The notes below the pieces were generated by a model, which was not told the DNA's origin, ran no database searches, and saw nothing but the letters and a program-made list of their open reading frames with translations. Positions 19,070-63,761 of a DNA stretch of 64,000 bases are shown here, piece after piece. The number at the start of each line of letters is the position of its first letter. The first letter of the stretch is position 1. Both the position numbers and the translations under genes were made by a program. The DNA comes from Arenicellales bacterium (GTDB taxonomy: Bacteria > Pseudomonadota > Gammaproteobacteria > Arenicellales > JAJDZL01), in contig CBDEUN010000003.1 in assembly GCA_965243305.1 (NCBI GenBank), forward strand, positions 768,465-832,464, in the 5' to 3' direction.

Positions 19070-19108
19070 ACAAAAACAAATCGAACACAAATTGTCGAGA
19101 GTACGGAC

Positions 19109-22209: not shown

Positions 22210-22291
22210 TACTTGCTTCCCATCACGTAAGCATTATCCAATTGATATAACTTGATGTCAGTCACAGCATGGACAGTCCATCATTTGAGCG

Positions 22292-43439: not shown

Positions 43440-43600
43440 GTTTTGGCCTGAAAGAGGGCGGTTCCGGACTAACAGCACTATGGCTGATTACCGTTGCGGG
43501 GGCAGCGCTGGAATTGCGAAGTAGAGAACCGGTTGAACGACTTCGCGCACCAAACTTCCCATTTAAAGTGTTGCCTTGAATTCGGATCAATTCGGCAACA
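43440..43600 (-). promoter_or_regulatory. Cobalamin riboswitch in the btuB leader
   Basis: The minus strand reads AATGGGAAGTTTGGTG(hairpin CGCGAAGT..ACTTCGC)AATTCCAGCGCTGCCCCCGCAACGGTAATCAGCC...TTAGTCCGGAACCGCCC. This matches the conserved AGGGAA / GGTG..AA.TCC / GC.G.CCCCGC.AC.GTAA core and the B12 box. Confidence 0.8.
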
Positions 43601-43791
43601 AACACCTCAAACAGCAGTGCGTCATTATACGGCTACATTTTTCAGTGCAATAATTAATTTTCACTTAGAATCAATAAATCGAGTAGTCGAAGATCACATT
43701 CGGAGGAACACTTTCCGATGTTGCCACCATTCAGGCGCTTGCCACATTAAAACTGTACCTGGCTTTACACAGATTGAACACTGCAGCATTA

Positions 43792-45246: not shown

Positions 45247-45852
45247 ATGGACGATGAAGCAAAACACAAGCACAACGTCACTCTGAAGCGCAAGAAGCTG
45301 GTGATCGATGAGCAGATTGCCCTCGCACAGGAAAATCGCGGGGTGCTGGTCTTGATTACTGGCGATGGCAAGGGTAAAACCACCTCCGCCTTCGGTACCG
45401 CATTCCGTGCTCTAGGGCACGGAATGAGGGTAGGAATCATACAGTTTATCAAAGGTACTCAGGCAACAGGCGAAGTCATTTATCTTACGCAACAGCATCC
45501 ACAACTGGCTTACCATGCCATGGCGACTGGCTTTACCTGGGACACCCGAGACTGGGACAAGGACAAAACCGCCGCAGAGGAGACTTGGGTTTACGCCAGA
45601 CGCATGCTGACGGACCCCGAAATTCAACTGGTGGTGCTGGACGAATTGACCTATATGCTTACGTATGAGTACCTGAGCATGGCCGATGTGATACAGGCTA
45701 TGCGTCAACGCCCAACAAGACAGAATGTGATTGTCACTGGCCGCGACGCGAAACCGGAACTGATTGCAATTGCTGATACCGTCAGCGAAATCGCTGCGGT
45801 CAAGCACGCATTCAAAGACGGCGTGAAAGCCCAGCCTGGTATGGATTTCTGA
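45247..45852 (+). CDS. cobO: Cob(I)alamin adenosyltransferase (copy 2)
   Basis: 201 aa. VLITGDGKGKTTSAFGTAFRALGHGMRVGIIQFIKG...LVVLDELTY...VIVTGRDA. Confidence 0.9.
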   Translation: MDDEAKHKHNVTLKRKKLVIDEQIALAQENRGVLVLITGDGKGKTTSAFGTAFRALGHGMRVGIIQFIKGTQATGEVIYLTQQHPQLAYHAMATGFTWDTRDWDKDKTAAEETWVYARRMLTDPEIQLVVLDELTYMLTYEYLSMADVIQAMRQRPTRQNVIVTGRDAKPELIAIADTVSEIAAVKHAFKDGVKAQPGMDF

Positions 45853-46718
45853 TGCTCAGGGGTGTGTTTCGAACCGGTTTGCTATGTTGTATTCTGAGTG
45901 CGGTCGCGAGTGCAGAGCAAACCGCCGCGTTGCCAACCATCGTTTCGACTCATCTTTGTGCTGACCAACTGGCACTGAGTCTGGCAGTACCGGAGCAGAT
46001 TCTTTCGCTCAGCTATAAGAGCCAGGACCCCCTTCGGTCTCGCCATGCCGCGCGAGCATTGGCCTATCCCGCCAATAGTGGCAGCAGCGAAGAAGTTATC
46101 CAGTTCAAACCGGATATTGTGCTGGCTTCGCGACGTTGGCGAAACCATCCGCAGCAACGACAGTTCGACACGCTGAATATTCGTGTGGTGGTGGTCCCGC
46201 TGTCTAACAGTTGGATGGAGATATTTGCCAACACCCAATGGATGGCCGATCAGCTCGGTCAACCAGAACGCGGTCATGCCTTGGTTTCGGATGTGCAACG
46301 TCGCCTACGCGCCTTGCAGGAGTCCGTGACAATTTCGGGCGAACCCGAGCAGAGTCTGCTGTACCTACGCCCCAATGGCGGCAGTAGCGGCGAGGGTACC
46401 TACATCGATATGCTAATCCGGGCTCTGGGCTTTCGCAATCATGCGTCGACATTGGGGCTCAAAGGCTGGGGTCAACTGGCACTGGAAAGCATCGTGATGA
46501 ATCCACCGGATTATTTTTTACTCAGCGGCCACGTGCGCGATAACACTCGCGGCAACAGCCGACTGTCTCGTCATCCGTTGCTACAGCAACTACTGGACGA
46601 GCAGACGGTTCTATCGCTACCACCCGACACTGGCTATTGTGCCGACTGGCAGATTATCGACACCGCAGAATACCTTGCCGGGCAATTGATGGCAGCAGCG
46701 AATGGAGAAGGACGATGA
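45852..46718 (+). CDS. Periplasmic binding protein (Peripla_BP_2, BtuF/FecB family), second importer
   Basis: 288 aa with a signal peptide. ...KPDIVLASRRW... Translationally coupled on both sides to cobO and a FecCD permease. Confidence 0.65.
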   Translation: MLRGVFRTGLLCCILSAVASAEQTAALPTIVSTHLCADQLALSLAVPEQILSLSYKSQDPLRSRHAARALAYPANSGSSEEVIQFKPDIVLASRRWRNHPQQRQFDTLNIRVVVVPLSNSWMEIFANTQWMADQLGQPERGHALVSDVQRRLRALQESVTISGEPEQSLLYLRPNGGSSGEGTYIDMLIRALGFRNHASTLGLKGWGQLALESIVMNPPDYFLLSGHVRDNTRGNSRLSRHPLLQQLLDEQTVLSLPPDTGYCADWQIIDTAEYLAGQLMAAANGEGR

Positions 46719-47737
46719 ACGGACAGACAGTTTATCGACGTTATCCTCTGTTGAACGGCGGTCTGCTAATCCTGTTACTGTTGTTGGCGCTGATCTCACT
46801 TCGTATCGGTCCCGTACCGATATCCACTGGTGAGTTGATCAACGCCCTGATGCAGAGCGACAGTTCCGACCAGGCGTTGCGCCATGGCATGATTCTCAGC
46901 GAATTGCGTCTGCCGCGACTTCTTTTGGCGATACTGGTAGGCGCTTCATTGGGGGTTTCGGGTGCGGCGCTACAGGGGCTTTTGCGTAATCCGTTAGCCG
47001 AGCCAGGCTTGCTCGGCGTTTCCTCATGTGCCGGGCTAGGCGCGGTGATCTGCCTCTACTTCGGCCTCAGTGTGTTGAGTATCTGGCTGCTACCGGTCAT
47101 GGCTATGGCCGGCGCCACGCTGGCGACTCTGTTGCTGTGCTGGATAGGTCGCCACCGTGCTGGCAACCTGACCCTGATTCTGAGCGGTATCGCGCTGTCA
47201 TCACTCGCCGCTGCATTGACTTCGCTGGCCCTGAATCTAGCGCCTACCCCAGCTGATGTGCGGGATATGGTACTGTGGTTGCTGGGATCACTGAACTACC
47301 GCAGTTTCTCCGACATTCAATTATGCCTGCCATTCGTGATCACAGGCCTAGCTCTGTTACTTAGCTGCGGTGCCAAGTTAGATGCACTAACCCTGGGCGA
47401 GGGCGAAGCGCAGAGTCTCGGTGTTAATCTACCTGCCTTACAACGACAGATCATACTCGGTACCGCTCTATGCGTTGGCTCCTGTGTTGCAGTGACCGGT
47501 TCAATCGGTTTTGTCGGGCTCGTGGTGCCTCACCTGTTGCGCCGCTGGGTGGACTACCATCCGTCGCGGCTGCTTTTGAGTAGTGCTGTGGGAGGCGCAG
47601 TGCTGTTGCTGACTGCCGATATCGCCCTGCGTTTGCTCAGCAGTACCCAGGAAATCATGCTTGGTGTGGTCACCGCGCTGATTGGCGCACCGTTCTTTCT
47701 ACTTTTGGTGCTGCAACAAAAGCGGGAGGCCGTATGA
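46715..47737 (+). CDS. FecCD-family ABC transporter permease, second importer
   Basis: LRLPRLLLAILVGASLGVSGAALQGLLRNPLAEPGLLGVSS...GSIGFVGLVVPHLLRRW...LGVVTALIGAPFF. ATG 46715 (an ATGA overlap with the upstream stop) is preferred over 46637. Confidence 0.8.
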   Translation: MNGQTVYRRYPLLNGGLLILLLLLALISLRIGPVPISTGELINALMQSDSSDQALRHGMILSELRLPRLLLAILVGASLGVSGAALQGLLRNPLAEPGLLGVSSCAGLGAVICLYFGLSVLSIWLLPVMAMAGATLATLLLCWIGRHRAGNLTLILSGIALSSLAAALTSLALNLAPTPADVRDMVLWLLGSLNYRSFSDIQLCLPFVITGLALLLSCGAKLDALTLGEGEAQSLGVNLPALQRQIILGTALCVGSCVAVTGSIGFVGLVVPHLLRRWVDYHPSRLLLSSAVGGAVLLLTADIALRLLSSTQEIMLGVVTALIGAPFFLLLVLQQKREAV

Positions 47738-48540
47738 GCGAGATGCCACTGCTGACCGTCAACAACGTGTTCGTAGAGCGGCAACAGCGTGTGCTGCTCG
47801 GAGACATATCGCTAAGTCTCCAACAGGGCGAATTGTTGGGACTACTTGGTCCCAATGGGGCTGGTAAGAGTACGTTGATGAAAGCCTTGGTTCAATTACT
47901 GCCATATCGCGGTGAGATTCGCTGTCAGGGAAAGTCACTACAACAGGTTTCTGCTGCCGAGCGCGCCAGGTTGATAGCATATCTGGAACAGTCTGTCCAG
48001 ACCGGTTGGCCAATCGCGGTGCGTGACTATGTCGCGCTGGGACGCCTGCCTCACCGCCGATTCTGGTTTCGCAACTCGCATCAGCATCGTGACTGGAAGG
48101 CTGTTGAAACGGCCATTGCACAGGCCGACCTCGGTGGTCTGGACGACCGGCCCGTGGCAGAACTGTCCGGCGGAGAGTTTGCCCGCGTACGGCTTGCTCG
48201 AGCACTGGCAGTACAAGCTCCCTTGTTGCTGGCCGATGAACCAGTGTCGGTACTCGATCCCTTTCACCAGTTGCAAGTAATGGAATTGCTACGGCAGCAA
48301 TGCCGTGACGGCAAAGCTGGTATCGTCGTGCTGCATGACCTCACCCTAGCCAGTCGTTTCTGCGACCGCCTCATGTTGCTGGACAAAGGCCGCCCGGTCG
48401 CAGCAGGTGTACCAAAACAGGTTCTCACACCAGCTAATTTGCAACAGGTCTATCAGGTGCAGGCCATGGTTGGCGAGCACCAACAGCAACCCTACATTTT
48501 GCCATGGACCCGCCATACCACCGAGTCCCCAGGCGAATGA
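47734..48540 (+). CDS. ABC transporter ATP-binding protein (FecE/BtuD family), second importer
   Basis: 268 aa. GPNGAGKSTLMK, LSGGEFARVRLARA, LLLADEPVSVLD. Confidence 0.8.
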   Translation: MSEMPLLTVNNVFVERQQRVLLGDISLSLQQGELLGLLGPNGAGKSTLMKALVQLLPYRGEIRCQGKSLQQVSAAERARLIAYLEQSVQTGWPIAVRDYVALGRLPHRRFWFRNSHQHRDWKAVETAIAQADLGGLDDRPVAELSGGEFARVRLARALAVQAPLLLADEPVSVLDPFHQLQVMELLRQQCRDGKAGIVVLHDLTLASRFCDRLMLLDKGRPVAAGVPKQVLTPANLQQVYQVQAMVGEHQQQPYILPWTRHTTESPGE

Positions 48541-48875
48541 GAAGTCGATGCCGACCAAGTTTATTTGAGATACCTGTAACGATGACATTCATCATCCCGC
48601 AGTTGCTAACCGGGTACCGCAATACCATTGACTTTAGGTATAAAGCAACCAATTTGGATCAATTTATGCAGGTTAATGCACAGAATTGGCTAAATTTGCA
48701 ACGATATTTTGGAAAATGATAGGATTAACAACTTTTAGAATGCAAATGACTATAGATAGCGACATGACGGGGCGCCGACGCTCCGTTACCGACCAGGAAC
48801 GGAACCCACGCAGCAGAAATGCATCACCCATCTACCGGCACGGTTTTCCCGGATTCACTTCGAAGGCACCTGACC

Positions 48876-49961
48876 ATGTACAGTAAAAATCATCACAAAA
48901 TTCCGGCAACGGTAGTTACCGGCTTTCTGGGTAGCGGCAAGACTACGTTGCTGAGAAACCTGCTCAATCATGCAGGGGGCAGACGCATCGCAGTCATTGT
49001 TAACGAGTTCGGCGAGCTAGGAATCGATGGCGAGATTCTCAAGGGTTGTGGAATCGGCTGTGAGGAAGAAGGCAGTGAAGCTGGAAACCTGTACGAACTG
49101 GCCAACGGCTGTCTGTGCTGCACGGTACAGGAAGAGTTTTTCCCAGTGATGCAGGAACTGATTAAGCGCCGCGATCAGATTGACCATATTCTGATTGAAA
49201 CTTCCGGGTTAGCGCTCCCAAAACCACTGGTTCAAGCCTTCCGCTGGCCGGAGATCAGAAATGCCTGCACCGTGGATGCGGTGATATGCGTGGTCGATAC
49301 CCCAGCGGTGGCAGCGGGTCGATTTGCCGCCAACCCTGATGCTGTCCAGTTGCAGCGTGAGGCCGACGACAACCTGGACCACCAATCGTCATTGCACGAG
49401 TTGTTCGAAGATCAGCTCAGCGCCGCCGACCTAGTAATACTTAGCAAAACCGACTTGGTGGATGAAGCGGCCATCGCCGCGGTCACAGAGGATGTCGGAA
49501 ACGAAGTGCCGGAACAGGTGAAGCTCATTCGCAGCACTACTGACGGTGTCGACATAAGCCTGCTGTTGGGGCTGGATCGTTCCTCTGAAGAGACTATACA
49601 CCTGCGTGCGAGTCACCACGATCATGCGCATGGCGATGATGACGAGGATCACCATCATGATCATGGTCACGACCAGTTCGACTCAATTGTGGTCGAGTTG
49701 GCGGCGGTAGAGAAAGTGCCGCTGTTCACAGCGCTGGAGCAATTGGTGAAAGACAATGCCCTATACCGCATCAAGGGCTTCGTCGCCTTGCCAGGCAAGC
49801 CGATGCGTCTGGTAGTGCACGGTGTTGGTACCCGCTTCGATAGTTATTTCGATCGTCGTTGGCCGACCGATACAGTACCCAGCACCCGTCTGGTTCTGAT
49901 TGGCAAAGATCTCGACCCCACAGACATGCAGCAACAGCTCGAAACCAAACTGGGCTGCTAA
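48876..49961 (+). CDS. cobW: CobW (COG0523 GTPase, cobalt chaperone type)
   Basis: IPATVVTGFLGSGKTTLL...NGCLCCT (the CxCC motif) ... His/Asp-rich HHDHAHGDDDEDHHHDHGHD. Directly upstream of cobN. ATG 48876 is preferred over 48819. Confidence 0.85.
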   Translation: MYSKNHHKIPATVVTGFLGSGKTTLLRNLLNHAGGRRIAVIVNEFGELGIDGEILKGCGIGCEEEGSEAGNLYELANGCLCCTVQEEFFPVMQELIKRRDQIDHILIETSGLALPKPLVQAFRWPEIRNACTVDAVICVVDTPAVAAGRFAANPDAVQLQREADDNLDHQSSLHELFEDQLSAADLVILSKTDLVDEAAIAAVTEDVGNEVPEQVKLIRSTTDGVDISLLLGLDRSSEETIHLRASHHDHAHGDDDEDHHHDHGHDQFDSIVVELAAVEKVPLFTALEQLVKDNALYRIKGFVALPGKPMRLVVHGVGTRFDSYFDRRWPTDTVPSTRLVLIGKDLDPTDMQQQLETKLGC

Positions 49962-49972
49962 GGGAAATCGGG

Positions 49973-52900
49973 ATGCATATGCTTGCGGCACAGCCTGGTG
50001 GTTTTGTCGATGATGACTCGATCATCATGCGCTTGGATCAGACACCCGCCGATCTCGTGATCCTCAGTGCCGCTGACACCACCCTTGCTTTACTCGCTGC
50101 CCAGCACCCGCGTGTAAGCGACGACTGGATGCTACCGGACTATCCCGAAGTGCGCCTGGCCAATCTACTGCACCTGCGTCAACACGCCTCCATCGACCTA
50201 TATATTGATGAAGTGCTTCAGCACGCCAAAGTAATCGTGATTGATCATCTGGGAGGGGAAAGTTACTGGCCCTATGGCACCCAGCGCGTTGTCGAGCTAT
50301 GCCATAACCGTGGGATTGTCCTGCTGATGTTTTCTGGTGACAATAGCGAAGACCTCATGCTGCTACAGAAAAGCACAGCGGCGATGGATGTATGCCGCCA
50401 GTGCTGGCGCTACCTGCGCGAAGGTGGTGCCGACAATGCACAACAACTGTACCGTTATCTGGCACAGCAGTTCTTCGACCAGGATATCCCTGTGTTGCCG
50501 CCAAAACCGATTCCGGCAATAACCGTTTTTCATCCACACAAGCCCATAGCCACCAGTGATGACTGGCACAGAGACTGGGACGACACGCATGCCATCATAG
50601 TCGTAGTTTTCTATCGTTCCCATTTGCAGGCCGGAAACACCAAGGCTTTCAGTGCATTGTGTGATGAACTGCTGCGACAGGGATTCAATCCACTGCCGGT
50701 GGCGCTGAGTTCACTGAAAGACGAGCTTTGCCTGGAAACCCTGCGACAGCTCTGCCGTGAGCACAATGCCCAACTGCTGTTGAATACCACTGCCTTTGCA
50801 ATCTCTTCGGTGAATACCGAAGGCGGTTCGTATCAGGCACTGGTGGATGATCTACCAGTGTTGCAATTGATCATGAGCGGCGACAACCAGCAACGGTGGC
50901 AGGAAGATGCCCACGGTCTGCGCCCCCGGGACATGGCCATGCATGTAGCCCTGCCCGAAGTGGACGGGCGCATTATCAGCCGTGCGATCAGTTTCAAAGG
51001 TCTCAACTATCACTGCGAACAGACTCAGACTGATGTGGTGCAGTATCAGCCACATCGCGAACGCATCGCTTTTGTCGCTCAGCTGGCTGCTAGCTGGTGC
51101 CGACTGCGGGCGAAAGCCAACAGTGAGAAACGGATTGCCTTCATTCTAGCCAACTATCCAACCCGCGAAGGGCGGCTCGGTAATGGTGTCGGGCTGGATA
51201 CGCCGGCTTCGGTGATCACGATACTGCACGCACTACAGCAGCAGGGTTACTCGATCGATAGTCCGCCGCCGGATGGCGATACGTTAATGCATGAATTACA
51301 ACAGGGTATCACCAACGATCCGAGCAACTGGTCACTGCGCCTCGCACGGCAAAGCCTGGCGATGGCTGACTACTTGGAATTTTTAGCGCAATTGCCGAAG
51401 GCAAGCCGCGAAGCGGTCAATGCCCGCTGGGGGCCGCCACACAGCGATCCGATGCTGAGGCAGAATCGCTTCATGATCGCCGGCTTGCGCTGTGGTCAAA
51501 TTTTTATTGGCATCCAGCCGGCTCGAGGCTATCACCTCGACCCGATGGCCAGTTATCACGACCCGGATCTTATTCCACCTCACTGCTACCTGGCCTTCTA
51601 CTGCTGGTTGCGCCATCACTACCACTGTGACGCAATCGTACATGTTGGCAAGCACGGCAATCTCGAATGGTTGCCTGGTAAGAGTGTGGCGCTCAGTACG
51701 GAATGCTGGCCGGATCTGATTTTTGGTCCCATGCCTCATCTCTACCCGTTTATTGTCAACGACCCCGGTGAAGGTGCCCAGGCCAAACGCCGCGCACAGG
51801 CAGTGATCATCGACCACCTTATGCCGCCGCTGACGCGCGCGGAAAACTATGGTCCATTGCAGGATCTGGAGCGGTTGCTGGATGAATTTTATGAAGCAAG
51901 AACGATGGACCCCAAACGCGAAAAGCTTTTGCGCACGGAGGTTCTGAAGCACATCCTAACGCAGGACCTGCACCGTGATCTGGGCATTGCACAACCGCAG
52001 AATGAAGAGGAAGAACAGGCGTTGCTGAACAGTACAGATGCCTATCTTTGTGAATTGAAAGAGAGCCAGATCCGCGATGGACTGCATATATTCGGCCATT
52101 CCCCGGCTGGCCAACAGGCCAGCGATACTTTAGTGGCACTAGCGCGTTACCCAGTAGGTCGGGGTGAAGGATCTCACAACAGCCTGATTCGTGCCCTGGC
52201 TGAGGATCTACTGCATACGGGGGAAACAGGTGATCAGGACGAATTCGATCCCCTGGATGCAGACTGGCAGCAAAGCTGGCAAGGAGTACGCCCGGCCCGC
52301 TTGCAGCAAGTGAGCGAGGAACCGTGGCGTAGTTGTGGCGACACCCGCGAGCGACTCGAGTGGCTCGCCCTAGACCTGTTGCAACAACGCGTAGCGCCGA
52401 ATGATTTGCAACTTCAGGGGCTGACGGCTACTGCCCTAGTGATGTCGCGCGTTTATGACGATCTGCAGCCGCGGCTAAACGCCTGTGGCGAAGAGGAAGT
52501 CCATCAACTGATGCAAGGGCTGAACGGACGCTTTGTTCCTCCCGGACCTAGCGGCGCGCCTTCGCGCGGTCGCCCTGATGTCTTGCCGACCGGAAAAAAT
52601 TTTTTCTCCGTTGATACACGAAGCATCCCAACTCAGGCCAGCTGGACTTTGGGCTGGCGCTCGGCGGAGTTGTTGGTGGAAAAATATCTGCTTGAGGAGG
52701 GAGATTATCCCAGTGCGATCGGCTTGTCGGTTTGGGGCACTGCAACCATGCGCACCGGTGGCGATGACATTGCCCAGGCCTTTGCCCTGATTGGTGTGAG
52801 GCCGAAGTGGGCGGAGGGTAGCCATCGGGTTACTGATTTCGAAATTCTTCCGCTGATGTTTCTCGACCGTCCCCGGGTGGATGTCACGCTACGAGTTTCA

Positions 52901-53791
52901 GGTTTTTTCCGCGATGCATTTCAAGGTCTAATCCATCTGTTTGATGCTGCGATTCAGGCCGTTGCCGAACTGGATGAACCCGCGGAAATGAATCCGATTC
53001 GCGATCGGGTCCAACGCGAGACACGAACCCTGTTGGAGCAAGGGCATAGTGCGAAACAAGCACGACAACTGGCGGGCTACCGTATCTTTGGCGCCAAGCC
53101 AGGCGCATATGGTGCTGGGCTTCAGGGGCTGATCGACGGCGGACATTGGCAGGATGATGAGGACCTTGCGACGGCGTACCGCAATTGGGGTGGTTATGCC
53201 TATGGCCAACAAACTTATGGAGAAGCGGCTCACGAACGATTCAGTGAGCGCCTGACCCAAGTGGAACTGGTAATACAAAATCAGGATAACCGCGAGCATG
53301 ATCTGCTTGATTCCGATGACTACTACCAGTTCCAAGGCGGAATGACCGCTGCAATACGTCACTATAGGGGACAGCAGCCGATAGCCTATTTTGGGGATCA
53401 CAGCAATCCGCAAGCGCCGAAAATGCGCAGCCTGGAACAGGAGATCAGCCGCGTGATGCGTGCTCGGGTGACCAATCCGAAGTGGATCGACGGCGTCAAA
53501 CGCCACGGGTACAAAGGCGCTTTCGAAATGGCAGCAACCGTGGACTACCTGTTTGCCTATGACGCCACCGCACGCGTGGTGCGCGATGACCAGTATGCAC
53601 AGCTTGCGGATGCCTACTTGCACAACCCGGACCGTCGCGAATTTTTGCAACAGCACAATCCTGCCGCATTGCATGACATCTGTGAGCGCTTACTGGAAGC
53701 CATGCAGCGCGGACTGTGGCAGGAACCCGCGGATCACCAACCGCGAATTGAAGAATACCTGCTTGATAATGAACAACGGATGGAAGGTTAG
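49973..53791 (+). CDS. cobN: Cobaltochelatase large subunit CobN
   Basis: About 1272 aa from ATG 49973. CobN/Mg-chelatase H family throughout (..ILANYPTREGRLGNGVGLDTP.., ..HVGKHGNLEWLPGK.., ..GRPDVLPTGKNF..). Confidence 0.9.
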   Translation: MHMLAAQPGGFVDDDSIIMRLDQTPADLVILSAADTTLALLAAQHPRVSDDWMLPDYPEVRLANLLHLRQHASIDLYIDEVLQHAKVIVIDHLGGESYWPYGTQRVVELCHNRGIVLLMFSGDNSEDLMLLQKSTAAMDVCRQCWRYLREGGADNAQQLYRYLAQQFFDQDIPVLPPKPIPAITVFHPHKPIATSDDWHRDWDDTHAIIVVVFYRSHLQAGNTKAFSALCDELLRQGFNPLPVALSSLKDELCLETLRQLCREHNAQLLLNTTAFAISSVNTEGGSYQALVDDLPVLQLIMSGDNQQRWQEDAHGLRPRDMAMHVALPEVDGRIISRAISFKGLNYHCEQTQTDVVQYQPHRERIAFVAQLAASWCRLRAKANSEKRIAFILANYPTREGRLGNGVGLDTPASVITILHALQQQGYSIDSPPPDGDTLMHELQQGITNDPSNWSLRLARQSLAMADYLEFLAQLPKASREAVNARWGPPHSDPMLRQNRFMIAGLRCGQIFIGIQPARGYHLDPMASYHDPDLIPPHCYLAFYCWLRHHYHCDAIVHVGKHGNLEWLPGKSVALSTECWPDLIFGPMPHLYPFIVNDPGEGAQAKRRAQAVIIDHLMPPLTRAENYGPLQDLERLLDEFYEARTMDPKREKLLRTEVLKHILTQDLHRDLGIAQPQNEEEEQALLNSTDAYLCELKESQIRDGLHIFGHSPAGQQASDTLVALARYPVGRGEGSHNSLIRALAEDLLHTGETGDQDEFDPLDADWQQSWQGVRPARLQQVSEEPWRSCGDTRERLEWLALDLLQQRVAPNDLQLQGLTATALVMSRVYDDLQPRLNACGEEEVHQLMQGLNGRFVPPGPSGAPSRGRPDVLPTGKNFFSVDTRSIPTQASWTLGWRSAELLVEKYLLEEGDYPSAIGLSVWGTATMRTGGDDIAQAFALIGVRPKWAEGSHRVTDFEILPLMFLDRPRVDVTLRVSGFFRDAFQGLIHLFDAAIQAVAELDEPAEMNPIRDRVQRETRTLLEQGHSAKQARQLAGYRIFGAKPGAYGAGLQGLIDGGHWQDDEDLATAYRNWGGYAYGQQTYGEAAHERFSERLTQVELVIQNQDNREHDLLDSDDYYQFQGGMTAAIRHYRGQQPIAYFGDHSNPQAPKMRSLEQEISRVMRARVTNPKWIDGVKRHGYKGAFEMAATVDYLFAYDATARVVRDDQYAQLADAYLHNPDRREFLQQHNPAALHDICERLLEAMQRGLWQEPADHQPRIEEYLLDNEQRMEG

Positions 53792-53846: not shown

Positions 53847-54923
53847 ATGAATCAAGTCAAGGAATACCATTTCCCATTCAGTGCACTGGAAGGCCAGCAG
53901 TCTTTGCAGACCGCCCTTTTACTGAGTGCGATCGACCCGCTAATCGGTGGCGTGCTGATTGACGGTCCACGAGGTACAGCCAAATCCACGGCAGCGCGCG
54001 GACTGGCGGATCTGCTGAACGAAGCCAAGCTGGTGAACCTGCCACTGGCGGCTAGCGAGGAACAGTTAATCGGTTCGCTGAATATCGAAGCGGCGCTGCA
54101 GGATGGCCGAGTGGATTTCAAGCCAGGGTTACTGGCGGCAGCCCATAACGGCGTACTCTATGTGGATGAAGTCAACTTGCTGCCAGATCATCTGGTGGAT
54201 GCCTTGTTGGATGTGTCAGCTAGCGGCATCAATCGTATTGAGCGCGATGGCATTTCCCATCAGCATCCGGCGCGGTTCGTCCTGATTGGCACCATGAATC
54301 CTGAAGAAGGACATTTGCGTCCACAGCTGCTGGACCGATTCGGCCTCTATCTGCAGCTGCCTCCCCGAATTGAGCCTTCTGTTCGCCAGCGTATTGTCCA
54401 GATTCGCCTGGATTTCGATCACGATCCAAAGGCTTTCACTGTCCGATTTCAGGCCGCGCAGCAGGCAATGCGGCAGCGACTGCAACAAGCCCGCGAGCGA
54501 TTGGAGGAGATCGATTTTTCCGAGGCGCTTGCAAGCAGGGTGGCTGAGATCTGTTACCAGGCTCATGTGGAAGGCGTGCGTGCCGATTTGACACTGCTGC
54601 GAGCGGCGCGGGCTCACGCCGCCTGGCAGGAGCGTGATGACATCACCGATGAGGATTTGGAGGCGGTAAAAGGCTGGGTATTGGCGCACCGTCTGCGGGA
54701 ACCTGAGACGGCTCCGGCAGATGCAATGTCCCCGACTTTCCCTGTGTTCGATCCCTCACATAAATCAACCTCAAGCGAGTATTTGGATTCAGACCAACCC
54801 GAACAAGATCAAGCAGAGCCGGGTGGGGATCAGGACTGGGGAGCAATGCCACCAGAAACACCGGATATTGCCATGGTGAAGTCAATAAAACCACTGTGGT
54901 CAAAAAAAAAACTAAAAAAGTAA
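53847..54923 (+). CDS. ChlI/BchI-like AAA+ chelatase module plus acidic/Pro-rich linker (zero-frame product of a ChlD-like gene)
   Basis: MNQVKEYHFPFSALEGQQSLQTALLLSAIDPLIGGVLIDGPRGTAKST (Walker A) ...VLYVDEVNLL (Walker B)... The tail PEQDQAEPGGDQDWGAMPPETPD resembles the ChlD linker. The ORF ends 4 codons after an A10 run. Confidence 0.75.
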   Translation: MNQVKEYHFPFSALEGQQSLQTALLLSAIDPLIGGVLIDGPRGTAKSTAARGLADLLNEAKLVNLPLAASEEQLIGSLNIEAALQDGRVDFKPGLLAAAHNGVLYVDEVNLLPDHLVDALLDVSASGINRIERDGISHQHPARFVLIGTMNPEEGHLRPQLLDRFGLYLQLPPRIEPSVRQRIVQIRLDFDHDPKAFTVRFQAAQQAMRQRLQQARERLEEIDFSEALASRVAEICYQAHVEGVRADLTLLRAARAHAAWQERDDITDEDLEAVKGWVLAHRLREPETAPADAMSPTFPVFDPSHKSTSSEYLDSDQPEQDQAEPGGDQDWGAMPPETPDIAMVKSIKPLWSKKKLKK

Positions 54924-55639
54924 CCGGTCAACAGCGGAGCCAGCGGAAACAAACTGCTATACGAATACCGACGGAACGTCGCGTAACGAACACGACTCCC
55001 GTTTCCTCCACCACTTCCAGCACGGCCAATGCTCCTTATGGTCAACTCAGCCAGACAGTGCGCTGGCCGCGAACCTTGATCCAGAAAGCCAATCAACCTT
55101 TATCAGAACAACATTTGTGTTACCAGATCCGCCGCCCAGCCGCGAATCGGATGTGCTGCCTGTTACTCGATTGCTCTGCTTCCATGCTGCGACAACGCAA
55201 GTTGTCCCTAGCCAAAGGATTGATTCTGCAACTCGCGCAGCAAATCCATCAGAAGCGTGGACAGTTGGCGGTGATCGGTTTTCGTGGCGATCAGGCCTCC
55301 ATCCTGAAACATCCCAATCAACTCACTAGCATGAATGAGCACTGGATTCGCAGTATTCAGGGCGGCGGCGGTACTCCGCTTCGCCAAGGTATTGAGGCTG
55401 CAGAGCGGTTTCTCCAGCGTTATCTGCAACAGTTTCCCGGGTTGACCGTTGATTGCTGGCTACTGACCGATGGACGATTTCGTGAAATTCCTGAAGCCCC
55501 ACCGGGGGCAAGTCATTACACTGTGATAGATTTTGAAGATGGGAGGCTGCGCCTTGCCAGAGCGCAGCAACTCGCATATCGATGGCACGCGGACTACCTG
55601 CGGGCGGCCGATGTGTTGGAAATGGATGAGTATGTCTAA
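54896..55639 (+). CDS. ChlD C-terminal vWA (MIDAS) domain, in the -1 frame relative to the preceding AAA+ ORF
   Basis: ...VRWPRTL...CCLLLDCSASMLRQRKLSLAKGLILQLAQQIHQKRGQLAVIGFRGDQASILKHP...GGGGTPLRQGIEAAERFL is the ChlD/CobT vWA pattern. The only in-frame start is a GTG with no Shine-Dalgarno (SD) sequence, inside the upstream ORF. Confidence 0.7.
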   Translation: MVKKKTKKVTGQQRSQRKQTAIRIPTERRVTNTTPVSSTTSSTANAPYGQLSQTVRWPRTLIQKANQPLSEQHLCYQIRRPAANRMCCLLLDCSASMLRQRKLSLAKGLILQLAQQIHQKRGQLAVIGFRGDQASILKHPNQLTSMNEHWIRSIQGGGGTPLRQGIEAAERFLQRYLQQFPGLTVDCWLLTDGRFREIPEAPPGASHYTVIDFEDGRLRLARAQQLAYRWHADYLRAADVLEMDEYV

Positions 55640-56023: not shown

Positions 56024-56122
56024 TTGATTAGAATAAACCAAGTATCCCGAGATGAAAGGTTACCGCCTCAACCACGACGGCCAGAAGAACTGTATTCCTG
56101 ATTGAACCAGAAGAGGAATTCG

Positions 56123-57364
56123 ATGACCCTGAAAGAACAAACCAGATTCAACCATCCACGCCTCCCTGTAACCGTTCTGTCGGGTTTTCTCGGGGCGGGG
56201 AAGACAACGCTCCTCAATCAAGTACTCAACAACCGACAGGGGCGGCGAGTCGCGCTAATTGTGAACGATATGAGCGAGATTAACATCGACGCAACGCTCG
56301 TAGAGCGCGGCGGCTCGGAACTCTCGCGCACCGAGGAGAAGCTGGTCGAGATGTCGAATGGGTGCATCTGCTGCACTCTTCGTGATGACCTTCTTGCGGA
56401 GGTGTCACGGCTTGCTCAGGAGCGACGCTTCGACTACCTGCTCATTGAGTCCACGGGGATCTCGGAGCCTATCCCCGTGGCACAGACTTTCACCTTTGAG
56501 GACGAGAACGGGGTGAGTTTGAGCCAGTTGTCACGCCTTGATACGATGATCACCGTCGTGGATACGGCCAACTTCTTGCGAGACTACAACGCTGCCGAGG
56601 ACCTCAAGGATCGCGGCGAATCGCTGGGGGAAGAGGATTACCGCACGGTTACACACCTGCTCATCGACCAAATCGAGTTTGCCGATGTCATTGTGCTGAA
56701 CAAGCTCGATCTCGTCAGCAATGAACATGCGCTTGAAGTCGAAGCTATCGTCAAAGCGCTCAACCCCGGCGCAAAAATCATCATGGCGACGCGTGGTCAA
56801 GTGCCACTGGAATGCGTGTTCAACACGGGCCTGTTTGACTACGACAAGGCAGCGAACTCCGCTGGCTGGATGCGGGAACTCCAGAACGAGCACACGCCGG
56901 AGACCGAGGAGTACGGGATATCGAGTTTCACCTACCACACGTCACTGCCCTTTGACGCTGAGAAACTGTGGGCATTTCTGCACTACGGCGAGAACTGGCG
57001 CGGCGTGCTCCGCTCGAAGGGTGTATTTTGGGTCGCGGCTGATCATCGGGTCGCTTACGAGTGGGCTCAAGCTGGTGGTGTCAGCGATGTAAACCCCATG
57101 GGAATGTGGTGGGCAGCTGTACCTCGCGACCACTGGGGACATCCCGAGGGTCAACGACCTGACCAGCACCCTGGCTGGCATCCTCGCTTCGGTGATCGCG
57201 CGCAGAAACTCGTCTTCATCGGTCAGCGGATGGATGAGGCGACGATGCGAACTCGCCTAGACGAGTGTCTGCTCGACAAGCATTTGGCCGACGCCGACAG
57301 TGAAGTCTGGGTGGAGCTAAAGAATCCGTTTCCAGCGCTCACGATGACTGAGGAGTCAGCATGA
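56123..57364 (+). CDS. COG0523-family GTPase (zinc metallochaperone type, ZigA/YeiR-like)
   Basis: [19 protein letters not shown]...NGCICCT (CxCC)... C-terminal CobW_C domain. Preceded by the Zur box. ATG 56123 with an AGAGGAA SD is preferred over TTG 56102. Confidence 0.8.
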
Positions 57365-57767: not shown

Positions 57768-58664
57768 TTGAAAAAATTTGCCACCCTTGAGTCAACCCAG
57801 TACCCAAAGACGGCATCCCCGCAAGAAACGCACACCCTTTCCCCGCCGAGGATAAAGGGTCAAACAACCGATCAGTCGTTTCTTGTCGTCGAAAAGCTGT
57901 GTTATGAATCAGCAAGCGGCACCGCACTGGTACAAGACGTGTCCTTCAGTGTGGATGAGGGAACTATTCTTGCCATCGCCGGCCCGAACGGTGCCGGGAA
58001 AACCACTCTGCTTCGACTTTTGAGTGGCTCTGAAGCGCCGACAGGCGGTGATGTACTGATCAACGGACGCAATCTAAAACACCTTTCCGCCACGGAGCGC
58101 GCCCGCATAATTGCCGTAGTCAGCCAGCAAGAACTACCCGATGGACGACTTTTCCTGCGCGATTACGTGGCCCTCGGGCAAATCCCAATACTGGCGGACC
58201 GGTCAAACCAGGTGCATGCGGAAGACTTGCAACGAATTCTGTACCTCACAAGTCTCACTGACTTGGCCGAAAAGCGGATGGCCGTGCTGTCGGGTGGCGA
58301 ACGCCAGCGAGCGCATATCGCACGGGCCTTGGCACAGAACCCGTCGCTTCTATTTCTGGATGAACCCACCAATCACCTCGACCCGGATGCCAAGGGTCGT
58401 ATGCTTTCACTGGTTACTGAACTGGGAATCACGGTGGTAATGGTTGTCCACGATCTGGTAATGATCCCCGAATTTGCCAGCCATGTCGCCCTGATGAACG
58501 CGACCCGGATAACCGGAGTAGGTCCCGTCAACGAGGTACTGACCCCCGACTGTGTACAAGAAATTTTCGGTGTCACCTACCTGCACTTTGCACATCGAGG
58601 TCGCCTGGTTCCCGCGCTAGATATCCGCAGAAATGTAATCTCAAAGGAAAGGAGAAATCTATGA
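57768..58664 (+). CDS. ABC transporter ATP-binding protein (FecE/BtuD family), third importer
   Basis: [41 protein letters not shown] start with a long N-terminal extension, so the start is uncertain. Confidence 0.7.
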   Translation: MKKFATLESTQYPKTASPQETHTLSPPRIKGQTTDQSFLVVEKLCYESASGTALVQDVSFSVDEGTILAIAGPNGAGKTTLLRLLSGSEAPTGGDVLINGRNLKHLSATERARIIAVVSQQELPDGRLFLRDYVALGQIPILADRSNQVHAEDLQRILYLTSLTDLAEKRMAVLSGGERQRAHIARALAQNPSLLFLDEPTNHLDPDAKGRMLSLVTELGITVVMVVHDLVMIPEFASHVALMNATRITGVGPVNEVLTPDCVQEIFGVTYLHFAHRGRLVPALDIRRNVISKERRNL

Positions 58665-59620
58665 AAAATACTATGATCCGATACCTCTTTCTGGTATGTG
58701 TGTTTACCGTCTTTGATAGCGCCGCTGTCGCTGACATCACTGTCGACAATTGCGGTGAGCCGCTGACCTTCAATACCACGCCTGAGCGGATTGTGGTGCA
58801 CGACATGAACATGACGGACATGGCCTTCGCACTAGAACTTCAGGGCAATATAGTCGGGTTGACAGGCATTACTGGCTGGTACAAAACCAGTCCTGAATTC
58901 GATTATCTGCGCGGCGACATACCTGAGCTGGCACCGAAGTATCCAACCATCGAAAATCTGATTTCAGCGGATCCGGATCTGTTCTTTGCTGGATGGTACT
59001 ATGGTATGCGCCCTGGCGGCGATGTCACACCCGATACACTCGCGGAATTTGGTATCAAGACCATGATTCTGACCGAAAGCTGCGTACACCTCGACAAGAA
59101 CCGCCCCGTAGCCAGCATGAACCTGCTGTTTGACGACGTTTTGCGTCTTGGTAAAGTCATGAATGTTGAAGACCGGGCCAAAATGCTCGTGGCTGGCTGG
59201 AAAGCAGAACTCGCTGCTATTGAAACGCGGACTGCTGACCTGGAAAGCCTGCGCGTCTTCCTGTTAGACGGCCCCGCCGATGCGCCTTTTACCGCTGGCA
59301 AGTTTGCCATTCCCGATGCAATGATCTCGGCTGCGGGCGGTGAGAATGTCACTCATGATCTTAATATAAGCTGGGGTCGAACTTCATGGGAGAAGGTAGC
59401 CGCGGCCAATCCTCAGTTCCTGGTACTGCTCGACTATCAGACAGGAAACGGCGCGGCAGATACTTTCAAGTTCCTGCAAGAGCACCCAGTGATGTCTCAA
59501 ATCGACGCGGTGAAGAACCAACGCTGGGTCGGCTTAAGATACGAAGAATTGACGCCCGGTCCGGCAAACATCCGCGCCATCGTAAAAATGGCGCAAGCAA
59601 TGCATCCAGAATTGAACTGA
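58661..59620 (+). CDS. Periplasmic binding protein (Peripla_BP_2 family), third importer
   Basis: 319 aa with a signal peptide. ...PERIVVHDMNMTDMAFALELQGNIVG...DPDLFFAGWYYG... Coupled to the flanking ABC genes. Confidence 0.65.
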   Translation: MKNTMIRYLFLVCVFTVFDSAAVADITVDNCGEPLTFNTTPERIVVHDMNMTDMAFALELQGNIVGLTGITGWYKTSPEFDYLRGDIPELAPKYPTIENLISADPDLFFAGWYYGMRPGGDVTPDTLAEFGIKTMILTESCVHLDKNRPVASMNLLFDDVLRLGKVMNVEDRAKMLVAGWKAELAAIETRTADLESLRVFLLDGPADAPFTAGKFAIPDAMISAAGGENVTHDLNISWGRTSWEKVAAANPQFLVLLDYQTGNGAADTFKFLQEHPVMSQIDAVKNQRWVGLRYEELTPGPANIRAIVKMAQAMHPELN

Positions 59621-59621
59621 C

Positions 59622-60635
59622 TTGACCCGATTGGATTTAGCTAATTTCACGGGGTTGGTTGTTCTAACCGCCCTTTTGCTGGTGTCGACACTTTATGGCA
59701 CAACGCAGATTCCGCTATCCGACATTGCCGAGGCGGTTGCATTGAACAGTGGGTTCGTTGAGGGCGACATGTCTCCATTGCATCGGATCGTGTTCGATCT
59801 GCGCTTGCCACGTGCGTTATTTGCAGCTGCGATTGGTGCCGGATTGGGCATCGTCGGTGTGGTATTGCAGACAACCACACACAATGATCTGGCCGATCCG
59901 TTTCTGTTCGGGTTGTCATCGGGCGCGGCTGCAGGTGCTGTTTTTGTCATCACTGTGACAGGTGATATTCTGGGCATCTGGACGCTTCCGCTGGCGGCGT
60001 TCTGTGGTGGCCTCGTCGCCTCAGGTATTGTTCTGGCGCTTGTCCACGGTCTGCACACCAGTGCGCCAGAAAAGCTGATCCTTGCCGGATTGGCAGTGTC
60101 TTTCCTCTTCGAGGCAGTCGTCAACTATCTCATTTTTGCAGGCGACAGCCGTGCTGCGCATTCGGTGATTTTCTGGATGTTGGGTGGCCTCGGTCTGGCC
60201 CGATGGGAGACTTTCCCGTTGGTCTGTATTGGGCTGGTTCTAATCTTGGCCTATTCCCTTTTTCGTAGCCGATGGCTGGATGCGCTATTGACCGGGGATG
60301 TCACAGCATCGACCCTTGGTGTGCCTGTGAAGCGCTTGCGGTTCAGCATGTTCTTCGTGGCCGCATTGGCCACGGCTGTTTTTGTGTGTGTCGCTGGTGT
60401 GATCGGCTTTGTGGGCTTGATGGTACCGCATCTAGCGCGCGGAATTGCAGGGCCGTTGCACCGTCATCTTCTGCCAACGGCAGCCATTGTGGGTGCTGTT
60501 TTGCTCACCGTCTCGGATTTACTGTCCAGGCTTCTTCTTGCACCGCAAGAATTGCCGGTGGGGATCGTGACCACATCCATCGGCTCTGTGTTTGTATTCC
60601 TGTTGCTGCTCAGAACACGGAAATTACAACGATAG
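59622..60635 (+). CDS. FecCD-family ABC transporter permease, third importer
   Basis: 337 aa. LRLPRALFAAAIGAGLGIVGVVLQTTTHNDLADPFLFGLSSGA...GVIGFVGLMVPHLARGI...PVGIVTTSIGSVF. Confidence 0.8.
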   Translation: MTRLDLANFTGLVVLTALLLVSTLYGTTQIPLSDIAEAVALNSGFVEGDMSPLHRIVFDLRLPRALFAAAIGAGLGIVGVVLQTTTHNDLADPFLFGLSSGAAAGAVFVITVTGDILGIWTLPLAAFCGGLVASGIVLALVHGLHTSAPEKLILAGLAVSFLFEAVVNYLIFAGDSRAAHSVIFWMLGGLGLARWETFPLVCIGLVLILAYSLFRSRWLDALLTGDVTASTLGVPVKRLRFSMFFVAALATAVFVCVAGVIGFVGLMVPHLARGIAGPLHRHLLPTAAIVGAVLLTVSDLLSRLLLAPQELPVGIVTTSIGSVFVFLLLLRTRKLQR

Positions 60636-62987: not shown

Positions 62988-63761
62988 TTGATGCTACTTG
63001 AACTGAAACACTGTCTCAGTATAATTCGAATCAGCAATGGTTCCCTTGATTGGGAAGCGATAAGGAACAAGGTCAGGCAAACTGCTGATTCCTTGGCTGC
63101 CCCCGCAACTGTATGCGGAGAGCAACTGCTCACTGAAGCCACTGGGAAACTGGGAAGGCAGAGCACAAGCATCGACCCGCAAGCCAGGAAACCTGCCATT
63201 GCCAGCGTTACCCAACCACCGAACGGGGTGTTCTGGTGGGGCGGATACCCGTTTTCGGTGGCGCGCCAGTTTGTGTTAACTGCAAAAGGGCACCGAAATA
63301 TGGGACTCCTTTCCGAATTCAACATCGTAATAACTGTCAGTCAACCTACTGGGTTCAAGGTGAATGTTCGCGCTGAACCTATGGTTTACCGCTTTTGCGA
63401 TCACTCTTCAGCTATCACAGAGAGACGATCCAATGTCCTATTTCTATCAAGTGTTTTATCGCATTTGGCCAGAATAGTCATCGGGGTTGTAACCGACCTT
63501 GGTTTAACACTAACCTGCCTTTCAATCCCAATCCGGAACGAGTCCTCTGAATCTCAGAAAGTCAATATACAGTCCAAATCTTCCACCTCCGTTCCAACAA
63601 ATCAGAAGATCGTAGCTTCGACTAATCAGGATTTCATTCTTATCGAAGATGATGCGGAAACAGTGCTGGCTGCTAAAAATCTGAAGCAGTTTTATGGAAG
63701 CGAGGCGCGTTTGGGGAAGTTCAACGATGAACTTTTTGTGATTCCTGGAATCAGGGTATGA
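62988..63761 (+). CDS. Hypothetical protein
   Basis: 257-aa ORF (TTG 62988 or ATG 62991) with no motif I recognise. Its stop overlaps the start of the next gene (ATGA-type coupling), which supports it being real. Confidence 0.35.
   Translation: MMLLELKHCLSIIRISNGSLDWEAIRNKVRQTADSLAAPATVCGEQLLTEATGKLGRQSTSIDPQARKPAIASVTQPPNGVFWWGGYPFSVARQFVLTAKGHRNMGLLSEFNIVITVSQPTGFKVNVRAEPMVYRFCDHSSAITERRSNVLFLSSVLSHLARIVIGVVTDLGLTLTCLSIPIRNESSESQKVNIQSKSSTSVPTNQKIVASTNQDFILIEDDAETVLAAKNLKQFYGSEARLGKFNDELFVIPGIRV

Follow-up and report, generated by a model that had tools for sequence, protein, structure and literature searches.

Domain organization of the locus

Given that an AAA+ module and a vWA domain of a presumptive chelatase are encoded here in two different reading frames behind cobN, we wondered whether a single gene gives rise to both a short and a long subunit through a -1 shift, or whether the interruption reflects a sequencing error, a pseudogene or two ordinary genes. 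The DNA comes from an Arenicellales bacterium; by “the window” we mean the whole 64-kb stretch that was analyzed, and all features below lie on its + strand. The zero-frame open reading frame, ORF1 (53847..54923, 358 aa), runs from ATG 53847 to TAA 54921-54923 and is predicted to encode a small (ChlI/CobS-like) subunit. It matches the Pfam families AAA_5, Mg_chelatase and AAA_lid_2, and its AAA+ module contains the Walker A motif GPRGTAKST (53964-53990; non-canonical, GPRGTAKS), the Walker B motif LYVDEVN (54156-54176) and a GTMNPEEG...RPQLLDRF motif. There follows a linker that is by composition acidic, Pro-rich and of the ChlD type (54699..54881; 14 D/E and 10 P within the 61 aa of the ORF1 tail, about residues 285-345). 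Conservation within the gene is lowest in this linker, with a nucleotide identity of 0.46-0.55 vs 0.72 for the whole gene. The -1 frame, open from 54764 to 55639, contributes a continuation (54920..55639; 239 codons after the shift, stop at 55637-55639) that encodes, in this order, a segment rich in Lys and Arg (VTGQQRSQRKQTA), a linker rich in Ser and Thr and a vWA domain (Pfam VWA_2) with the MIDAS motif DCSAS (55169-55183), GGGGT (from 55361) and LLTDG (from 55460). Immediately upstream lies cobN (49973..53791; Pfam CobN-Mg_chel 1347 bits; TIGR02257 1607 bits vs a cut-off of 822), which ends 56 nt before ORF1. Its likely start is ATG 49973; the mechanical ORF begins at TTG 49859, and the TIGR02257 alignment begins at residue 39 of this ORF.

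An earlier note on this DNA had described the AAA+ frame with its acidic/Pro-rich linker, a run of ten A (54902-54911) and a stop close behind it, as well as a vWA/MIDAS domain in the -1 frame whose start would be a GTG lacking a Shine-Dalgarno (SD) sequence, and we recovered each of these elements at the same positions, with the GTG at 54896. Its remarks that cobN directly precedes the gene and that the cluster has no separate chlI also held up: a tblastn search of the 64-kb window with the fused protein found no second ChlI/ChlD-like coding sequence (best other match, E=0.38).

Judged from the sequence, the domain identities of both ORFs are unambiguous. ORF1 gives N-terminal matches to the NCBIfam profiles TIGR02442, BchI and BchD. 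On the 641 positions of TIGR02442, ORF1 covers 86-349 and ORF2 covers 456-584, and the fused protein of 597 aa forms one stretch (86-584). Its scores lie under the NCBIfam cut-offs (TIGR02442, 469.6 vs 779.45; BchD, 296 vs 499.55; BchI, 311.5 vs 466.95), so that the assignment of subunit roles rests on genomic context and the literature. End to end, the fused protein is 51% identical to a 601-aa single-ORF homologue (P0007) from a locus with the order cobW-cobN-chlD, and ORF2 aligns with residues 365-556 of this homologue. Single-ORF fusions are thus found in the same cobW-cobN setting. The best 120 homologues divide into 80 with a fused single ORF and 40 that consist of ORF1 only.

The frame change is shared by all split-gene relatives examined

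To judge the interruption itself, we turned to split-gene relatives whose DNA was examined, 28 in total, including 6 Arenicellales genomes, 9 metagenomic relatives, Variovorax, Variovorax-like contigs, Pseudomonas and Caballeronia. All 28 change to the -1 frame at one shared position in the linker, and a long -1 ORF continues from there. The best database match to ORF1 is 86% identical, and the Pseudomonas and Caballeronia proteins, whose junctions were confirmed directly, are 57-58% identical to it. A scan of metagenome contigs with ORF1 gave matches of at most 51% identity (Variovorax-like, Porphyromonas-like and archaeal) and no close Arenicellales sequence. Most of the relatives are annotated as separate genes, an “AAA family ATPase” and a “hypothetical protein.”

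These comparisons bear directly on the idea of a frameshifted pseudogene derived from a once-fused chlD. While the gene is indeed interrupted relative to its fused homologues, both ORFs are intact, without any additional stop, both here and in 28/28 split-gene relatives, down to 48% identity, and the interruption always falls at the same site with a slippery sequence that is under codon-level selection (see below). The pseudogene reading, to which we assign a minimal probability, is thus contradicted. Together with a sequencing error, it had been among the explanations offered by the earlier note; as causes of the frame change, both are effectively excluded by six orthologues that lack the A10 run and nevertheless show the same change with intact ORFs.

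An invariant slippery heptamer abuts the ORF1 stop

The sequence common to these junctions is a -1 slippery heptamer. In the window, A_AAA_AAG occupies 54914..54920 in zero-frame phase (CTA AAA AAG at 54912-54920) and is directly abutted by the ORF1 stop TAA (54921..54923). The heptamer is invariant in 12/12 sequences of clades 1 and 2, whose proteins are just 61-87% identical, and in each of the 12 a TAA or TGA comes right after it; in clade 3, Variovorax, Pseudomonas and Caballeronia, the ORF1 stop is located one codon later. In the more general form A_AAA_AAR, the site is present in 28/28 split-gene relatives, and a KK or KKx C-terminus is found in all 40 ORF1-only homologues among the best 120. 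The AAA-AAG codons are invariant in 11/11 sequences, while about 2% of the other columns with an invariant amino acid keep one codon. A fused homologue, serving as a control, has no A-run at the equivalent site. The heptamer as such is not enriched in the 64-kb window (11 copies of AAAAAAG vs 14 expected), and its significance derives from phase, position and conservation among orthologues rather than from mere presence. In two orthologues (L002 and L004), no more than 13 nt of open -1 frame precede the ORF1 stop, so that the shift can be assigned to the heptamer. No SD-like stimulator was seen 5' of it, since 54890-54913 reads ACCACTGTGGTCAAAAAAAAAACT and contains no GGAG, AGGA or GAGG, and a promoter/terminator scan around the junction returned nothing above chance.

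The earlier note had also invoked a -1 shift, and the class of mechanism stands; the conserved site is another one, as the shift had been placed on the A10 run, about 12 nt away, and the invariant A_AAA_AAG-stop at 54914-54923 had not been singled out. Likewise, of the two features it had proposed to look for in orthologues, the frame change is conserved (28/28 split-gene relatives) and the A-run is not (0/28).

The same alignments speak to the possibility of two ordinary genes, in which a stand-alone vWA protein would be translated from GTG 54896, from GTG 55058 or by termination-reinitiation. Gene callers do report a separate downstream ORF in most relatives, and in several orthologues a GTG follows the stop at about +137. 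However, this GTG is a conserved Val codon within the motif V(R/H)WPRT, and GTG 54896, besides having no SD, derives from the codons of a conserved Leu-Trp pair; L002 and L004 have a -1-frame stop between its position and the heptamer, and their first -1-frame start codon follows only 128-137 nt downstream. A further orthologue (L019) has no -1-frame start codon within 200 nt, and at the junction in the window there is a GTA instead of a start codon. Moreover, conservation of the -1-frame peptide sets in at the heptamer (KKVTGRQxGxxKQTAA), indels in the linker 3' of the junction are multiples of three and thus frame-keeping, the single-ORF fused homologues are colinear straight across the junction, and the fusion product has been seen in reporter assays of family members (PMC3711429). 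We therefore regard two independently translated genes as quite improbable.

Hence, we consider it very probable that this locus is a frameshifted chlD (fs-chlD) gene of a CobN-dependent cobaltochelatase, from which a short and a long subunit are produced by a -1 shift. One gene with a short I-like and a long D-like product was among the readings of the earlier note, and it is supported by the conserved frame change, the colinear single-ORF homologues and the published reporter assays on the family.

A candidate stimulatory RNA structure downstream of the heptamer

Directly after the stop lies a candidate stimulator (54925..54960), composed of a stem S2 (54931-54937 with 54954-54960) and an optional stem S1 (54925-54929 with 54938-54942); together, the two stems would form a candidate H-type pseudoknot. 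RNAalifold predicts S2, with compensatory changes in 2/7 pairs. Pair counts reached 93% vs 22-52% in slid controls, and the shuffle control was not significant (67/500 reached the covariation score), for which reason we do not claim the pseudoknot as established. In relatives, the element takes the form of a conserved 7-bp stem, possibly a pseudoknot, or of hairpins of 10-12 bp (clade 3 and Caballeronia). The clade 1 and 2 relatives may share a compact H-type pseudoknot, built from GGCC/GGCC and CARCRG/CUGYUG pairings and with a loop 3 rich in A, of which a literature search found no description. Single-sequence z-scores for the 48 nt after the heptamer range from -0.7 to -2.0, and among the single-sequence folds that of this genome is the weakest (-7.9 kcal/mol). 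The element is degraded here, with S1 at 3 bp and an internal C-A mismatch in S2.

The A10 run adjacent to the heptamer

Two nucleotides upstream of the conserved heptamer lies the A10 run (54902..54911; TCA AAA AAA AAA, then CT-AAAAAAG-TAA), which contains two in-phase A_AAA_AAA heptamers and is the sole A/T homopolymer of at least 8 bases in the 64-kb window. Long-read and some short-read platforms tend to misread runs of ten A, and 80 of the best 120 homologues are single-ORF fusions, so one might ask whether the run is really A11 (or A8), in which case chlD would be a simple in-frame fusion. Yet a run of ten A brings the end of ORF1 precisely onto the conserved A_AAA_AAG-stop, in a phase shared with six orthologues without a long A-run, and the distance from a conserved Trp codon to the heptamer is 4 codons, as in L002, L004, L005 and L006; an eleventh A would throw the conserved heptamer and stop out of phase and leave them without purpose. 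The match in phase and spacing, along with the misfit of A11, makes the frame change independent of the run-length call, and a homopolymer miscall is highly improbable. DNA-level phase variation, in which A10/A11 switching would alternate between split and fused forms, was considered as well.

The length of the run is sufficient for RNA-polymerase slippage, and extra slippage, either ribosomal or transcriptional, may occur at this putative second site. Programmed transcriptional slippage is recognized by a coding-region run of at least 9 A/T that is conserved among relatives; the run is present here, and it is absent from 28/28 split-gene relatives. One could go further and place the shift in this genome mainly at the A10 run rather than at the heptamer, through A11 transcripts or ribosomal slippage on A_AAA_AAA_AAA. 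This would agree with an in-phase run of 10 A that is alone of its kind in 64 kb, with chelatase reporters whose efficiency rises with run length (7 A, 10%; 9 A, 40%; 11 A, 63%; PMC3711429), with the slippage on runs of at least 9 A established for Thermus dnaX (cited in PMC3711429) and with the weak downstream structure, which would suit a shifted reliance on the run. On the other side, all the split-gene relatives manage with the heptamer alone, and here the heptamer and abutting stop are fully kept, with nothing to mark them as dispensable. Overall, we find a dominant role of the run doubtful; it would be compatible with the heptamer reading. It is also tempting to speculate, if only tentatively, that this genome has been caught part-way between two recoding mechanisms, in that the stimulator of an ancestral signal for ribosomal frameshifting, made up of heptamer and structure, has decayed and a newly expanded A10 run has taken over, in part via RNA-polymerase slippage. 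The signs of decay on which this proposal draws are the 3-bp S1, the mismatch in S2 and a duplicated CAGCGG; if true, such a switch would parallel the alternatives realized by E. coli and Thermus dnaX, inside a single gene.

Proposed expression of the two subunits

For the fs-chlD reading, that ribosomes shift in this genome, how often they do so and what each product does are inferred, and the following course of events would result. Ribosomes starting at ATG 53847 would translate the zero frame up to TAA 54921 and yield the 358-aa AAA+ protein, which should end in ...LKK. A fraction of them would slip back by one base at A_AAA_AAG (54914-54920), either because both tRNA-Lys re-pair on A-AAA-AA or because the P-site tRNA-Lys slips during slow decoding of UAA. 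The slipped ribosomes would then read GUA-ACC-GGU and produce the 597-aa AAA+-linker-vWA/MIDAS protein of about 65 kDa (...PLWSKKKLKK-VTGQQ...). The role of small (ChlI/CobS-like) subunit would fall to the short product and that of medium (ChlD/CobT-like) subunit to the long one, and both, sharing their N-terminus, would assemble with CobN. Shifts at the A10 run would give the same long product except for a Thr in place of Leu356, so that the site of the shift should be legible in the protein: Leu356 (...SKKKLKKVTGQQR...) for a shift at the heptamer and Thr356 (...SKKKTKKVTGQQR...) for a shift or slippage in the A10 run.

Comparison with known recoding systems

The arrangement has already been described, and the locus is another member of a published family; the case opens no new question. 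In E. coli reporters, Mg-chelatase cassettes with 11, 9 and 7 A gave 63%, 40% and 10% frameshifting (Antonov et al. 2013, PMC3711429), Atkins et al. 2016 (PMC5009743) describe purifying selection on A_AAA_AAR together with a downstream structure that varies, and the frameshifted Mg/Co-chelatase chlD family also appears in Kuznetsov et al. 2022. The window agrees with this family in the succession of an AAA+ ORF and a -1-frame vWA ORF, in the A_AAA_AAR at the linker end with a stop 0-1 codon later, and in having cobN immediately upstream and no small-subunit gene nearby (here, in the 64-kb window); the downstream structure of the family, which is variable in sequence, has a weakened candidate counterpart here. 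The same frameshifted Mg/Co-chelatase chlD family is reportedly also treated in Antonov 2020 (MBE). The present case differs in its host, an uncultured Arenicellales-like gammaproteobacterium, in a stop that abuts the heptamer instead of following one codon later, in a short stem or possible pseudoknot where clade 3 and Caballeronia have hairpins of 10-12 bp, and in the additional A10 run, which ends 2 nt before the heptamer.

Among other systems, E. coli dnaX (tau/gamma) shares the A_AAA_AAG decoded by tRNA-Lys, with a downstream structure as stimulator, for which there is a candidate here, and two products with a common N-terminus that act in one complex at a set ratio, as would be the case here. 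The proteins are unrelated, though, dnaX has an SD-like stimulator upstream where none was seen here, and the shift gives the short product in dnaX whereas it would give the long one here. The dnaX-like arrangement suggested by the earlier note is therefore apt for the slippery sequence and reversed in polarity, which is that of IS911/IS3 orfAB. In these elements, a -1 shift on A_AAA_AAG near the end of the upstream ORF (orfA) likewise generates a fusion in addition to a short zero-frame product, but they encode transposases, with an SD-like element and a defined structure, in contrast to the housekeeping metabolic enzyme encoded here. Thermus thermophilus dnaX and Shigella mxiE/spa13 resemble the A10 run in that coding runs of 9-10 A/T, a length it reaches, can give mixed transcripts; here, the run is not conserved and adjoins a canonical ribosomal site. 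With the class I chelatases CobNST and ChlIDH/BchIDH, the locus has in common a division into three parts, with CobN as the large, substrate-binding subunit, a small subunit of the AAA+ type and a medium subunit of AAA+-linker-vWA architecture; it differs in that the small and medium subunits would come from one gene, with scores below the BchI, BchD and TIGR02442 equivalog cut-offs.

For annotation, both ORFs should be joined as a single chlD-type gene with a -1 ribosomal slippage feature, as the separate-ORF labels carried by the relatives hide a complete CobN-type cobaltochelatase. An uncultured marine-type gammaproteobacterial lineage thereby joins a recoding family with earlier examples from Pseudomonadota, Chloroflexi and methanogens. 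Finally, the tandem of A10 and A_AAA_AAG-stop is a natural variant that could be used to separate the effects of run length, stop and structure on the small:medium subunit ratio.

A ChlD-like gene spread over two reading frames

ORF1, on the plus strand from an ATG at 53847 to a TAA at 54921-54923, encodes 358 aa with a ChlI-type AAA+ module (Pfam AAA_5, Mg_chelatase and AAA_lid_2; Walker A GPRGTAKST at 53964-53990, Walker B LYVDEVN, and GTMNPEEG...RPQLLDRF), followed by the acidic, Pro-rich stretch, about 60 residues long, that the earlier note had read as a ChlD linker. Its 3' end, TGG TCA AAA AAA AAA CTA AAA AAG TAA, holds the A10 run noticed shortly before the stop (54902-54911, plus strand), which is the only A/T homopolymer of at least 8 bases in the 64 kb window and lies two bases 5' of a heptamer, A_AAA_AAG (54914-54920, plus strand), that abuts the stop itself. 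The vWA/MIDAS domain indeed lies in the -1 frame, which is open from 54764 to 55639 on the plus strand and encodes a VWA_2 domain with the MIDAS residues DCSAS, GGGGT and LLTDG (ORF2). Immediately upstream, cobN (plus strand; TIGR02257, 1607 bits vs a cut-off of 822) ends 56 nt before ORF1, with cobW 5' of it, and two cobW paralogues flank the cobN-chlD pair (48819-49961 and 56102-57364). Searched by tblastn with the fused protein, the 64 kb window showed no further ChlI- or ChlD-like sequence, in line with the claim that the cluster lacks a separate chlI.

Both ORFs match TIGR02442, the NCBIfam profile “putative cobaltochelatase” of 641 positions, ORF1 at positions 86-349 and ORF2 at 456-584, and their conceptual fusion matches it in a single stretch from 86 to 584. 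When the fusion was searched against 5.8 billion proteins, the best 120 matches fell into two kinds: 80 single-ORF proteins of 540-713 aa with about 97% query coverage, from Halomonas, Hahella, Marinomonas, Moritella, Accumulibacter and others, and 40 ORF1-only proteins, 334-387 aa long. Among the single-ORF proteins, the best match (P0007, 601 aa, 51% identity) aligns unbroken across the junction and comes from a locus with the same order, cobW-cobN-chlD; its equivalent site carries no A-run and reads CCG CCC AAA GCC. Judged by sequence, then, the two ORFs together make up a single ChlD-like gene. The protein does not reach the NCBIfam cut-offs as an equivalog of BchD, BchI or TIGR02442, so “ChlD-like” is the accurate label. 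In nearly all of the best 120 homologues, Walker A reads GPRGxAK[ST], with Ala where the canonical GxxxxGK[ST] has its second Gly (Gly occurs in two among the variants listed), so that the complex would have a non-canonical P-loop in its sole ATPase.

The frame change and the heptamer are conserved

A scan with one genome per species returned six orthologues from Arenicellales MAGs (L001-L006, 75-87% identity) and five from Variovorax (48-50%). Nine relatives at 58-67% identity (L054-L062) were added via their ORF1 proteins, together with one Pseudomonas locus, one Caballeronia locus (ORF1 57-58% identical to the proteins of these two) and six Variovorax-like metagenome contigs, giving 28 split-gene relatives. 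In all 28, the linker position at which ORF1 stops is the same and a long -1-frame ORF continues; the A10 run is absent from every one of them. The features described in the earlier note are confirmed in every detail, and its interpretation as a -1 slippage is right in kind, but the A-run is not conserved and the proposed shift site on it lies about 12 nt away from the conserved heptamer.

A run-length sequencing error retains a small residual probability. The same frame change is found in six orthologues without a long homopolymer and is therefore independent of the run-length call. With ten A, the window shares its phase and the four-codon spacing from the conserved Trp to the heptamer with L002, L004, L005 and L006; with eleven, neither the conserved heptamer nor the stop would be in phase. 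The further suggestion of a frameshifted pseudogene is contradicted by ORFs that are intact, and by selection that is site-specific, across relatives down to 48% identity.

In the 12 nearest sequences (clades 1 and 2) the junction is NNA AAA AAG with TAA or TGA as the very next codon; it reads CTA AAA AAG NNC TGA in L059-L062 of clade 3, GCA AAA AAG CCC TGA in Pseudomonas, CCA AAA AAA GCC TGA in Variovorax and TCA AAA AAA TCC TGA in Caballeronia. At the protein level, every one of the 40 ORF1-only homologues has a C-terminal KK (12) or KKx (28). When 11 sequences were aligned by codon, the Lys pair was encoded as AAA-AAG throughout, whereas only about 2% of the other 189 invariant columns of degenerate amino acids use a single codon (mean pairwise codon identity 0.44). 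The junction also forms a local island of nucleotide identity (about 0.76-0.8 vs 0.46-0.61 in the surrounding linker).

L002 and L004 have a -1-frame stop 7 nt 5' of the heptamer, and their -1 frame opens only 13 nt before the ORF1 stop, so that in these two the shift is possible on the heptamer only. That ORF2 instead initiates independently of ORF1 is unlikely: the first -1-frame start codon lies 128-137 nt downstream in L002 and L004, L019 has none within 200 nt, the junction codon in the window is GTA, and the GTG at 54896 arises as a by-product of conserved Leu-Trp codons. From the heptamer on, the -1-frame peptide is conserved (KKVTGRQxGxxKQTAA), and the indels in the variable segment that follows (9, 15 and 39 nt) are all multiples of three.

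The A10 run and a candidate downstream structure

In this genome the A10 run is in phase (A_AAA_AAA_AAA) and lies where the -1 frame is open. If ribosomes slipped within it, or if RNA polymerase inserted one A too many, the same long protein would result, with Thr replacing Leu356. In this one genome the run plausibly leads to more of the long product, since published reporters in E. coli gave 63%, 40% and 10% frameshifting for cassettes of 11, 9 and 7 A (Antonov et al. 2013, PMC3711429), and it might compensate for a decayed downstream structure. Near the conserved heptamer, L003 has an extra in-phase Lys-codon slippery motif (TGG AAA AAG, 4045-4051), and L004 an A8 run within the loop of its candidate structure (about 4100-4107); the Lys-rich tail seems prone to produce secondary slippery sites resembling the A10 run.

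Downstream of the heptamer, L059-L062 carry a perfect 10-bp hairpin, CACGGCAGCC/GGCUGCCGUG (arm also given as GGCTGCCGTG), right after the ORF1 stop, and the Caballeronia locus a perfect 12-bp hairpin, GCCATCGAAGGC/GCCTTCGATGGC, directly 3' of it. Both begin 6 nt beyond the heptamer and are, as candidate stimulators, much stronger than any structure in the window. For the 12 closest sequences, RNAalifold gave a 7-bp stem (S2; alignment columns 23-29/46-52, window 54931-54937/54954-54960) with compensatory changes at two pairs (one occurring as G-C, G-U and A-U, the other changing from G-C to A-U). Its 16-nt loop holds a GGCC able to pair with an upstream GGCC (stem S1), which would make an H-type pseudoknot starting 4-5 nt past the heptamer, with a loop 1 of 1-2 nt, no loop 2 and an A-rich loop 3 of 11 nt. 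Pair counts reach 93% vs 22-52% in slid controls; the shuffle control was not significant (67/500), S1 never covaried among the compared sequences, and single-sequence fold z-scores were -0.7 to -2.0, and we therefore rate the structure as a candidate only. The fold of the window is the weakest of the set (-7.9 vs -11 to -14.3 kcal/mol), with S1 down to 3 bp and a C-A mismatch in S2. Its CAGCGG is duplicated, giving an alternative hairpin too far downstream for a canonical stimulator, and no SD-like element lies 5' of the heptamer in the window.

Relation to a published recoding family

A_AAA_AAG is the slippery sequence of E. coli dnaX and of IS911. The predicted polarity in the window, in which the zero frame gives the short product and the shift gives the long one, is like that of IS911 orfAB and unlike that of dnaX. 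The phenomenon is already known as a published recoding family, to which the gene in the window is a new addition: Antonov et al. (2013) described a cluster of 23 Mg-chelatase genes carrying a -1 frameshift, found in Pseudomonas, Burkholderia, Delftia, Herpetosiphon, Methanocaldococcus and Methanococcus, and Atkins et al. (2016, PMC5009743) reported that these ORF overlaps carry an A_AAA_AAR on which purifying selection is strong, and that the structure downstream of it is poorly conserved in sequence. Kuznetsov et al. (2022) concerns organisms like Pseudomonas aeruginosa, with cobN and chlD but without a small-subunit gene. The comparative sequence results for this lineage independently reproduce the statements about the family, and the annotation should be corrected to one gene with ribosomal slippage.

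Other features of the window

Cobalamin riboswitches lie at 63021-63214 (plus strand, 101.8 bits) and at 43439-43624 (minus strand, 37.6 bits, just over the gathering score of 31.5). The latter precedes an operon for B12 uptake and late assembly (43086 to 31881) encoding, in order, a TonB-dependent B12 receptor, BtuC- and BtuD-like proteins, CobU, CobT (DMB-PRT), CobC, CobS (ribazoletransferase), CbiB, a BtuF-like protein and CobQ. Three BtuFCD-like ABC transporter gene sets fall within 30 kb (45852-48540; 57768-60635; 38427-40227 plus 33512-34429).

Two direct IS copies of 1761 bp, 99.94% identical (10798-12558 and 20451-22211) and each encoding a 496-aa DDE_Tnp_1_4 transposase, flank a segment of about 7.9 kb in which a DsbD gene (16973-18889) lies, and together with that segment may form a composite transposon. 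Between genes at 19022-19070, two AT-rich palindromes identified by eye as Fur-box-like, GATAATGGTTATCATTA and TTGATAATAATTATCATTT, lie upstream of a solute-binding-protein gene (19109-20149, from Pfam). On the minus strand, a match to group II intron domains D1-D4 (RF02001, 1579-1759, 49.6 bits) adjoins a DDE_Tnp_1 transposase gene (2037-3218, minus strand).
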